NCBI RefSeq assembly: GCF_006345805.1
Contig: NW_021824684.1
Coordinates: 1-45,728 of the forward strand
Direction: 5' to 3'
Length of the DNA: 45,728 nucleotides
Source: Octopus sinensis
Taxonomy: Eukaryota
Under the pieces are notes generated by a model, which was not told the origin of the DNA, did no database searches, and saw nothing but the letters and a program-made list of their open reading frames with translations. Each line of letters opens with the position of its first letter. Position 1 is the stretch's first letter. This document shows, piece by piece, positions 14,568 to 37,700 of the stretch. The translations under genes and the position numbers were made by a program.

Positions 14568-14674
14568 TTTTGAATGAGATGCAACATGTTTTGACTGCTT
14601 TTACCCACAGTTATGGATTTCTAAGCTTGTCACTGAACTAAGAGAAAACATAAAAAAAGAAACCGGTTTTAAGA

Positions 14675-14890
14675 AGCCTTTCTACTACAGGCACAAGGCC
14701 TGAAATTTTATTTTTGTGGGGATGCTAATTGATTATATCAATCTCAGTGCACAACTGGTACTTATTTCATTGACCCTGAAAGGATGAAAGGCAAAGTCGA
14801 CCTTGGTGGAATTTGAACTTGGAACATAAGGGCAAATAAATGCCACCAAGCGTTTTGCCTGGCATGTAAATAATTCTGCCAGCTTACCAC
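14675..14890 (-). mobile_element. SINE family B-related, diverged
   Basis: GACCCTGAAAGGATGAAAGGCAAAGTCGACC core in reverse orientation. Confidence 0.75.
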
Positions 14891-35293: not shown

Positions 35294-35343
35294 CCTAGGA
35301 CTGAACAGCAACAGCATTAACAAACGGTATAATAATTAAGTAA

Positions 35344-35758
35344 GGCGGCGAGCTGGCAGAAACGTTAGCACGCCGGGCGAAATGCTTAGCGGTATTTCGT
35401 CTGCCATTACGTTCTGAGTTCAAATTCCGCCGAGATCGACTTTGCCTTTCATCCTTTCGGGGTCGATAAATTAAGTACCAATAAAGCACTGGGGTCGATA
35501 TAATCGACTTAATACCTATGTCTGTCCATGTTTGTCCCCTCTATGTTTAGCCCCTTGTGGCTAATAAAGAAATAGGTATTTCGTCTGTCGTTACGTTGTG
35601 AGTTCAAATTCTGCCGAGGTCAACTTTGCCTTTCATCCTTTCGTGGTCGATAAATTAAGTACCAGTTACGCACTGGGGTCGATATAATCGACTTAATACC
35701 TATGTCTGTCCTTGTTTGTCCCCTCTATGTTTAGCCCCTTGTGGGTAATAAAGAAATG
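35344..35758 (+). mobile_element. SINE family B dimer, 18-bp TSD
   Basis: TSD GGTATAATAATTAAGTAA at 35326-35343 and 35759-35776. Internal junction AAAGAAATA|GGTATTTCG at approx. 35575. Confidence 0.9.
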
Positions 35759-36009
35759 GGTATAATAATTAAGTAAATAATGTGAAGTGTCAGCATTGGT
35801 TAAAACTTGAACATGTAATAGTTGTTTTTGTTGTCGTTAATAGCCCAGATTAATGTGACAAGTTGATAGAAGCATCAGCATACCAGGCAAAAAGGTTAGT
35901 AGCATTCCATCCATCATTATGTTCTGAGTTCAAATTTCACAAAAGTTGAATTTGCCTTTCATCCTTTTGGTGTCCATAAATCAAGTATCAGTGAAACATT
36001 GGGATCAAT

Positions 36010-36269
36010 TACGGAGATATACTCGCATAGCAAGTGATTTGATCTGAGATCGTGTGCTGGAACGAAAACAATTGCAGCATGGAAGGTGTTTGTAAGCCAT
36101 TTAAGAAACACACAAAGCCGTGAAATGCAGCACGGAATTTTGTCAGTGAACAGGTCGCAGATGTAAGCGAGGAAAATATTTTGACAAATTAAACTTAAAT
36201 GTTGAAGTGAATCGAATGGCTTTTGTGTGTTTCTTAAATGGCTTACAAACACCTTCCACGCTGCAATTG
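36010..36269. mobile_element. Hammerhead-bearing insert with ~50-bp internal inverted repeat and 12-bp TSD, inside a diverged SINE B
   Basis: TSD ATTGGGATCAAT at 35998-36009 and 36270-36281. Inverted repeat at approx. 36069-36120 and 36217-36269. Confidence 0.75.
36139..36188 (+). ncRNA. Minimal type-I hammerhead fold, G3:C8 core variant
   Basis: TTTGTCA | GTGAACA | G GTCGC-AGATGTAA-GCGAG | GAAA | ATAT | TT | TGACAAA. 7-bp helix I and palindromic helix III. The helix II closing pair is G.G in this copy. Confidence 0.6.
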
Positions 36270-36384
36270 ATTGGGATCAATGTAATCGATTAGTCTCCTC
36301 CCCCCAAATTTCAGGCCTTGAGCCTTCAATAGAAAGGATTATTAGCTCAGGTCAACTTGAATTCAAGAGACCTATAATTGATTT

Positions 36385-36592: not shown

Positions 36593-37119
36593 ACAAAAGA
36601 CCTATAAGTAATCAAACTCATTCTAAACAAAACCAGCCATGATTACATTGTGTAGGCACATAGCCTTAGGGTTACAGTATTGCATTATAGATCATAAGAT
36701 TTCTGTTTCAATTCCTGGACCAGGGGGTGTTTTGTGCTCTTGAGCAAAACTTTTCATTTCATGTTGCTCCAGTTCATTCACCGGTCAATGCGTTAACCCT
36801 GTGATGATCCAGCATCCTGTTGTAACCACAGCCACTTATCCTCATTGGAAACCAGATCAAGCTCTAACTCGATGAGTCCAACAGCTCATGCAAAAAAACA
36901 AAATAAAATGTTGTATGCCCTTTTTTTTTGTTTAAGATAATTATAGTCCAATTTGAGAATGATTTGCTTGTTATTTCTAATAGATGAAACGATTACATAT
37001 AGTTTTCCATGTTGGTTCATAATTTCCCACATCAGGTGTATTACTAATCTCAGATTTGAGTTATGAGTCATATGAACGAAACCATGAGTAAGACTAAATA
37101 TTTATATATCCATAAGCCT

Positions 37120-37700
37120 GTGAGCTGGCAGAATCATTAGCACACCTGGAGAAATGCTTAACGATATTTCATCTGCTGCTACATTCTGAGTTCAAATGCC
37201 ACCGAAGTCGATTTTGCCTTTCATTCTTTCGAGGTCGATTAAATAAGTACCAGTTACGCACTGGGGTCGATGTAATCGACTTAATCCGTGTGTCTGTCCT
37301 TGTTTGTCCTCTCTTTGTTTAGCCCCTTGCGGGTAGTAAAGAAATAGGTATTTCATCTGCCATTATGTTCTGAGTTCAAATTCTGCCGAGATCCACTTTG
37401 CCTTTCATCCTTTCAGGGTCAATAAATTAAGTACCAGTTATACACTGGGGTCGATGTAATCGACTTAATCCCTTTGTATGTCCTTGTTTGTCCCCTCTAT
37501 GTTTAGTCCCTTGTGGGCAATAAAGAAATAAGAATCGTTAGCAGCTTTTTGTCTGTCTTTACATTCTGACTGCAAATGTTGCTGGGGTCAACTTTTACTT
37601 TCATTCTTTTGGGGTTGATAAAATAAGTAACAGCTGAACACTGAGGTTGTTGTAATTCTGCCTCCTAAGCTTGCAGGCCTTGTACCAAAAGAAGAAACCA
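37120..37700 (+). mobile_element. SINE family B dimer (approx. 37120-37530) followed by an older B-related body
   Basis: Junction AAAGAAATA|GGTATTTCATCTG at approx. 37347. Confidence 0.82.

Follow-up and report, generated by a model that had tools for sequence, protein, structure and literature searches.

Introduction

In the active fold of the hammerhead ribozyme, as seen in crystal structures, positions 3 and 8 form a tertiary pair. Search descriptors treat this pair as fixed at C3:G8, and the sole natural exception found in the searched passages of the papers cited here, to which all our statements on published systems refer, is U3:A8, seen as a natural covariation in Schistosoma hammerheads (Cervera and de la Pena 2014, PMC4209133). 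In PAc, the Penelope-like retroelement (PLE) Poseidon of Anolis carolinensis, an engineered C3G/G8C exchange partly restores hammerhead cleavage (Frangieh et al. 2024, PMC11167929), as does an engineered double swap at 3:8 in PMC8495972 and PMC3884650. Cleavage by the PAc hammerhead is protein-assisted, and insertion in vitro does not require it (PMC11167929). PLE insertions have been described in which truncated pieces form an inverted pair and only one side carries a tail, and an IFD-like stretch in the reverse transcriptase (RT) has been described for elements with an N-terminal endonuclease (EN) (Craig et al. 2021, PMC8557442). Here, we describe a hammerhead-like motif with a natural G3:C8 pair, and the PLE family to which it belongs, starting from a 260-bp insert in a window of 45,728 nucleotides of Octopus sinensis DNA (assembly GCF_006345805.1, contig NW_021824684.1, positions 1 to 45,728, forward strand).

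A family-wide G3:C8 core

In the window copy, a 7-bp helix I (TTTGTCA/TGACAAA) encloses a core that reads G3 (36146), TGAA, C8 (36151) and A9. An extra G follows A9 and leads into a 5-bp helix II (GTCGC/GCGAG) with a G10.1.G11.1 mismatch at 36154/36171, after which come GAAA, ATAT, U16.1 and U17 (H17 being U). Helix III consists of one pair inside the palindromic AAUAUU; the palindrome AAAAUAUUUU is self-complementary, with a computed duplex energy of -3.8 kcal/mol, and would allow a dimer. The minimum free energy fold holds helices I and II. A layout scan allowing any Watson-Crick 3:8 pair returned one match in the window and at least one match in 4 of 200 block shuffles.

The family core, GUGAACA, departs from the literal type I core consensus C3-U-G-A-N-G8-A9. 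Because it fails the CUGANGA consensus, we filed the motif as a hammerhead variant and not as a consensus member. Rfam gave no hammerhead among the 150 listed of 189 matches for the window, and a cleaner copy (L049:1460-1700) matched none of its hammerhead families at E<=10. The motif is almost certainly a hammerhead homologue.

We searched the genome (2.72 Gb in 13,516 contigs) for further copies. With the insert as query, there were 2,931 first-look candidates; 40 of these were scored, and the best 30 aligned end to end. Three exact patterns produced 1,144, 4,644 and 6,766 genomic matches, and the reversed controls produced 0. In the pattern that left the seven core letters free (4,644 matches), 80 of the 100 matches listed read GTGAACA and none of these 100 carried C3:G8. 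The G3:C8 swap is thus a family-wide state, as an earlier note made from the letters of the window alone had supposed.

To describe variation within the family, we used 77 arms, drawn from 70 loci of a single scaffold and picked by an anchor downstream of the motif. The earlier note had predicted C in the family where the window copy has G36171, and C11.1 was indeed present in 63 of 69 arms, so that G36171 reflects decay of the window copy. At U4 G5 A6, A9, G12 A13 A14 and A15.1-U16.1, each column had its majority state in 57-71 arms, and a second allele reached 12% in none of them. Overall, a second allele of this frequency was seen at none of the 13 core sites, at 2 of the 24 sites of helices I and II, at 5 of 8 loop II sites and at 5 of the 40 sites elsewhere in the leader; both variable helix sites stay paired, as U.G.

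There were also 207 otherwise perfect copies without C8; among the 100 listed, 44 had G, 40 had T and 16 had A at this position. G8 rows were found in old and young subfamilies. We rejected the idea that G3.G8 marks an ancestral intermediate subfamily: on a rough 182-row tree, the 17 G8 rows need 8 changes.

The parent element

The motif is linked to one open reading frame (ORF) that encodes an RT with a YVDD motif and, at its C terminus, PF01541 (GIY-YIG), which bears out the Penelope-like affiliation proposed earlier. One copy, in which the 5' end is missing, keeps a frame of 1,042 amino acids without stops. At eight loci of the family, the G3:C8 motif lies 0.9-1.1 kb past the RT-EN stop in five, is present only as an inverted copy in one, reads G3.G8 in one and is absent from one; inverted copies are on the 5' side in 4 of the 8. 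In L187, the pseudo-long terminal repeat (pLTR)/untranslated region, hammerhead, ATG and ORF are continuous. The hammerhead precedes the ATG in L187, L193 and L205, and a 59-nt tail reads in frame into the ORF in L187, L188 and L193. We found the pLTR with its hammerhead both before and after the ORF (a partial tandem), as well as an inverted 5'-truncated copy together with the one-sided 59-nt tail.

Left flanks were microsatellites in 20 of 30 copies, the targets being AT-rich or (TA)n, and of the 10 copies that have unique flanks, 7 showed target-site duplications (TSDs) of 8-13 bp. The linker CQSNCAVC..C..KGIVY supplies a CxxxCxxC motif before the C-terminal EN, in a layout that resembles the Nematis rows. 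The best-scoring homologue of the element protein came from Octopus vulgaris, at 58% identity. In the L096 protein, about 125 residues separate YPS from QTKG (RT motifs 3 and 4), an IFD-like length in an element with a C-terminal EN. The (TA)n targets, together with the reported lack of canonical hammerheads in Naiads, had raised the idea of Naiad membership; we rejected it, as the EN is C-terminal and the motif is DKS, not N-terminal GIY-YIG with DKA. Canonical CTGANGA hammerheads of other repeat families were seen in the fetched loci L099 (minus strand), L103, L105, L107, L113, L283 and L287.

Relatives and the 3:8 pair

Two sister families carry a hammerhead at the same place with a different 3:8 pair. 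In sister family 2 (53-55% protein identity), 21 of 21 arms combine C3:G8 and A9C with a helix II that reads GTCAC/GTGAC; the loci of this family include L101:7371 and 11 others, and its ORF has a long Asn-rich insertion. Sister family 3 (about 50% identity) has U3:A8 with helix II GTTGC/GCAAC in 10 of 20 loci, in 7 of which the motif lies 0.5-0.8 kb past the ORF. An RT fragment of family 3, with 55% identity to family 1 (the G3:C8 family), also lies in the window at 4374-4645 (minus strand). Families 1, 2 and 3 form one clade with 100/100 support, in a tree made up of relatives only. Among the 20 metagenome loci, U3:A8 together with C9 occurs in L237, and C3:G8 in L236 (read by eye) and L239. 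The hammerhead at L236:4973 combines C3:G8 with a flipped U15.1-A16.1 pair and is followed by a tandem ORF start.

For a covariation test, we aligned seven hand-picked motifs by sequence only, two of them from family 1. Position 3 was paired with position 8 in all seven rows, in three types, and both sides changed in 10 of 11 pairs. Pairing held in 93% of cells; none of 500 shuffles reached such values, and slid controls gave 20-52%. U4, G5, A6 and GAA were invariant in all seven rows, and helices I and II covaried among these homologous hammerheads. Since related elements read C3:G8 or U3:A8 and the helices covary, the 3:8 pair is probably under selection. Comparison with outgroups suggests that G3:C8 is the derived state.

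Two further hammerhead-like motifs lie in the window. One, at 266-305 (plus strand, core at 273), has an A3:U8 pair (ATGAATA), a 2-bp helix II and a palindromic ACCGGT, and its link to PLEs is that of a candidate. Its family has 428 genomic matches, and the pair is family-wide, with 86 of the 100 listed reading ATGAATA; we take this to be the A:U version that the earlier note had placed elsewhere in the window. The other, at about 3545-3590 (minus strand, core at 3582), reads CTGTNGA, that is, C3:G8 with A6U and a free N7, and represents a very abundant family (15,488 genomic matches). This is presumably the motif that had been read as a U.G version (TTGAAGA at 3579, minus strand), a reading we rejected: the supposed U3 varies among T, A, C and G in the 100 matches listed, because it is the N7 of the CTGTNGA core and the U.G reading is out of register. 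The broader proposal of different 3:8 pairs in different families thus stands for G:C, C:G, U:A and A:U, and falls for U.G. Four Watson-Crick 3:8 states are present in the octopus genome, three of them among proven homologues.

Anatomy of the insert

The insert occupies 36010-36269 of the window and is flanked by an exact 12-bp TSD, ATTGGGATCAAT (Table 1). It splits a SINE-like repeat (SINE, short interspersed nuclear element), and an uninterrupted relative of that repeat in the window (reverse complement of 14655-14800) contains the TSD stretch once. Each about 52 bp long, the two inverted arms are identical but for one mismatch and one indel. Insert, TSD, inverted repeat and G3:C8 layout are all present as the earlier note had described them. 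The stretch is also present in contigs from sequencing runs under four organism labels, and it is therefore no artefact of one assembly. The host repeat is abundant, about 184-186 bp long and often tandem, and recurs at 35341-36009, 37113-37656, 6751-7895 and other places in the window.

Table 1. Positions of the insert's parts and of its flanks in the window
Feature	Position	Strand	Remarks
Left TSD, 12 bp, within the host SINE-like repeat	35998-36009		Uninterrupted host copy for comparison
59-nt PLE tail, ORF codons about 12-31; one arm only	36010-36068	-	3'-end distribution; in-frame run into ORF
Inverted arm, 5'-truncated leader and ORF start; ATG 36100-36098, minus strand	36069-36121	-	
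Start of plus-strand piece, GAA then ATGCAGCAC at 36125	36122-36138	+	Common 5' wall of short copies; putative transcription start
Minimal type I hammerhead, G3:C8	36139-36188	+	Predicted cut after 36181
Leader remainder and first 11 codons, ATG at 36238	36189-36269	+	Ends at the first of two 3' end sites
Second inverted arm	about 36217-36269	+	Within the leader/first-codons piece
Right TSD, 12 bp	36270-36281		

The insert is not an element of its own: it consists of two truncated, inverted pieces that derive from the autonomous PLE, namely from its leader and first codons. The small non-autonomous retroelement that the earlier note had postulated as the unit is thus better described as a by-product of the RT-endonuclease element, because all of its sequence maps to the leader and ORF start of that element and its junctions vary. 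The window copy, having lost the G10.1-C11.1 pair, is likely a decayed by-product and a weakened fossil.

One could still ask whether the hammerhead likeness is due to chance, or whether the insert is a miniature inverted-repeat transposable element (MITE) or other DNA transposon with terminal inverted repeats. The inverted arms and the lack of an Rfam hammerhead match would suit such an origin. The arms, however, are asymmetric, with the 59-nt tail on one side only, and TSD length is variable; the sequence corresponds to an RT-EN element's leader, homologous motifs covary, and 4 of 200 shuffles yield such a motif. We rejected the MITE reading, and the link to the ORF together with the covariation refutes this explanation as a whole, leaving it a vanishingly small probability.

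Ends of the short copies

In the 77 arms, 3' ends were bimodal, with 28 at the start of the tail, 42 at its end and 7 elsewhere. At the 5' side, 25 of the 77 arms began in an 8-nt stretch immediately upstream of the hammerhead; the next 66 nt upstream held no start, and 7 arms ran far upstream. Of the short copies, 33 begin with AG at this 5' wall, and in 23 of them a G precedes the AG where the template has C or T, an excess with a binomial p of about 1e-7 against 0.25. Reverse transcriptases of other retroelements can copy the cap. We read the non-templated G as the trace of a capped transcription start copied by RT. The bimodal 3' ends match the two internal RT start sites of PAc (PMC11167929).

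Sequence 5' of the cut site was kept in 72 of the 77 arms, so that integration proceeds mostly from uncut RNA. Internal junctions varied from copy to copy. One identical internal junction was shared by six of the 77 arms (L127, L132, L139, L159, L175 and L180), which may represent a short rearranged form that was itself re-amplified.

These ends suggest the following scheme. Transcription would start a little upstream of the hammerhead, at the A of TCAG, and yield a capped RNA, on which RT would initiate internally at two sites within the first 31 codons, as in anole PAc. By running to the 5' end of the RNA, RT would then produce complementary DNAs of 145-205 nt ending with the cap-copied G, and two such pieces, joined head to head, would enter AT-rich DNA at a staggered nick, giving rise to the TSD. 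Cleavage would be slow or late, given that most inserts derive from uncut RNA; it would be dispensable for integration and would serve to trim the leader or to cut tandem transcripts.

A different route would make the 260-bp unit a retrozyme-like, non-autonomous element in its own right, spreading through hammerhead-cut RNA of unit length or circular form. Its outer ends are indeed fixed, most copies with unique flanks have TSDs of 8-13 bp, and the short rearranged form recurs in 6 of the 77 arms. By contrast, the junctions differ between copies, the ends lie away from the cut site, the pieces are inverted and not tandem, and the whole sequence maps to the leader and ORF start of the autonomous element. 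This route is largely refuted, and we consider it very improbable.

Discussion

The minimal type I hammerhead in the leader of this family, with its G3:C8 pair throughout the family, likely still reaches the active fold and likely cleaves slowly, either dimerised or assisted by protein. We hold this explanation as a whole, including the origin of the insert from truncated leader pieces, as fairly likely. Some rate of cleavage by the family RNA has a better than even chance, while activity of the window copy appears doubtful.

The alternative that deserves most attention is that the motif is a non-cleaving descendant of a hammerhead, in which the PLE retains the helices and the 3:8 pair for a structural, protein-binding or promoter/leader role. 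We rate this as unlikely, if far from negligible. It has to contend with three Watson-Crick 3:8 states among homologues and a fourth in another family, with the invariance of U4, G5, A6 and GAA across the seven rows, and with the place of the 3:8 tertiary pair in the active fold. It must also accommodate the partial activity retained by engineered G3:C8 (PMC11167929, PMC8495972). What it would readily explain is that 72 of 77 arms stem from uncut RNA, that relatives have A9C or A6U cores, that G3.G8 copies recur across subfamilies, and that PAc inserts without cleavage and has no reads ending at its cut site (PMC11167929).

Several points weigh against the slowly cleaving hammerhead that we favour, or against the scheme attached to it. 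Low variation within the family is partly a matter of recent amplification. The G3.G8 class, 44 of the 100 listed copies without C8, exceeds the background (20 C>G/G>C against 43 C>A/G>T), and this excess could mean that unpaired variants still transposed. Exact starts at the cut site are confined to 3 of the 77 arms, each of them ambiguous because it is a helix-I microhomology junction. The A9C change in sister family 2 and L237 and the A6U change in the 15,488-match family indicate that constraint on the core may be relaxed in these elements. The covariation set is small, with seven hand-picked rows of which two come from one family. In PAc, by analogy, cleavage needs protein and insertion does not need cleavage. 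Finally, text resembling a branch point, polypyrimidine tract and AG (CTAAC..TTTCTCAG) at the 5' wall looks like a 3' splice site, which leaves the transcription-start reading less than proven; among 51 short copies, we found no spliced junction or upstream exon, the single 9-mer match being a TA repeat.

Sister retroelements with G:C, C:G and U:A at homologous positions, together with the A:U family, provide natural covariation evidence for the catalytic tertiary pair. Thousands of such motifs per genome escape current searches, Rfam being without a match. The matched families form a natural series with different and probably slower cores, linked to nearly intact RT-endonuclease ORFs, in which the role of the PLE hammerhead can be approached. 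The end distributions support, in a second PLE lineage, the model of internal RT initiation known in vitro for PAc. More tentatively, and as something possible rather than probable, this may be the first natural, high-copy and active G3:C8 hammerhead of an animal, in a single genome that would hold all four 3:8 pairs as well as A9C and A6U cores, its motifs numbering tens of thousands and escaping both CUGANGA descriptors and Rfam. In that case, PLEs would be selected for hammerheads that reach the active fold and yet are tuned to be slow, and variants of this kind may account for the hammerheads "missing" from other PLE clades.

Comparison with known systems

Lunse et al. 2017 reportedly deals with PLE hammerhead variants. 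A survey of passages from papers other than that one and Przybilski and Hammann 2007 found G3:C8 as an engineered pair only (PMC11167929, PMC8495972, PMC3884650) and no natural example. In particular, none occurred in the passages of PMC6155905, PMC7151607 and PMC7229834, and the string "G3-C8" had 0 occurrences in the searched passages of PMC3088659. The novelty of a natural G3:C8 pair is therefore provisional. The natural core variants described by Perreault et al. 2011 (PMC3088659) offer parallels in their U3-A8 covariation at 3:8 and in a U15.1-A16.1 pair of the kind seen in L236.

The likeness to the minimal PLE hammerheads (PMC4209133) is close. Like these, the octopus motif has a type I layout in the pLTR, an extra nucleotide that separates position 9 from 10.1, the G10.1-C11.1 pair and a palindromic helix III suited to dimer cleavage; most copies are likewise truncated and single, and copies in opposite orientation lie 100-700 bp apart. 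Unlike them, it escapes their CUGANGA consensus and U3-A8 descriptor through its G3:C8 pair, and its helix I is longer (7 bp). The resemblance to minimal, dimer-type pLTR hammerheads of PLEs also holds when set beside the review PMC6765202.

Short hammerhead repeats related to PLE pLTRs, with larger TSDs, are shared with the non-LTR retrozymes, retrozymes without long terminal repeats (PMC7229834; bioRxiv 10.64898/2026.07.22.740005). The octopus insert, however, is an inverted truncated pair, whereas those are head-to-tail units with canonical cores and circular RNAs (same two sources).

Compared by motif only, the element protein is like those of Nematis and Neptune (Craig et al. 2021, PMC8557442) in its C-terminal GIY-YIG, its CX2-5CxxC linker and a layout like that of Nematis in Fig. 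S2 of that paper. A CCHH-type EN, an inverted 5'-truncated copy, a tail and a (TA)n bias are further points in common, whereas its RT has TDKSG and a long stretch between motifs 3 and 4, which that paper associates with Naiad and Chlamys.

In its mode of insertion, the family resembles PAc (PMC11167929): the hammerhead lies where pLTR and ORF meet, the tail is defined by two internal RT start sites, targets are AT-rich, and insertion proceeds from uncut RNA. The two differ in that G3:C8 is natural and fixed in the octopus family and engineered in PAc, that the tail is 59 nt in octopus and 30-40 in PAc, and that the octopus ORF starts about 50 nt past the hammerhead, while the PAc ORF starts in stem II. 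The octopus protein, moreover, has a CxxxCxxC linker that is absent from Penelope/Poseidon.
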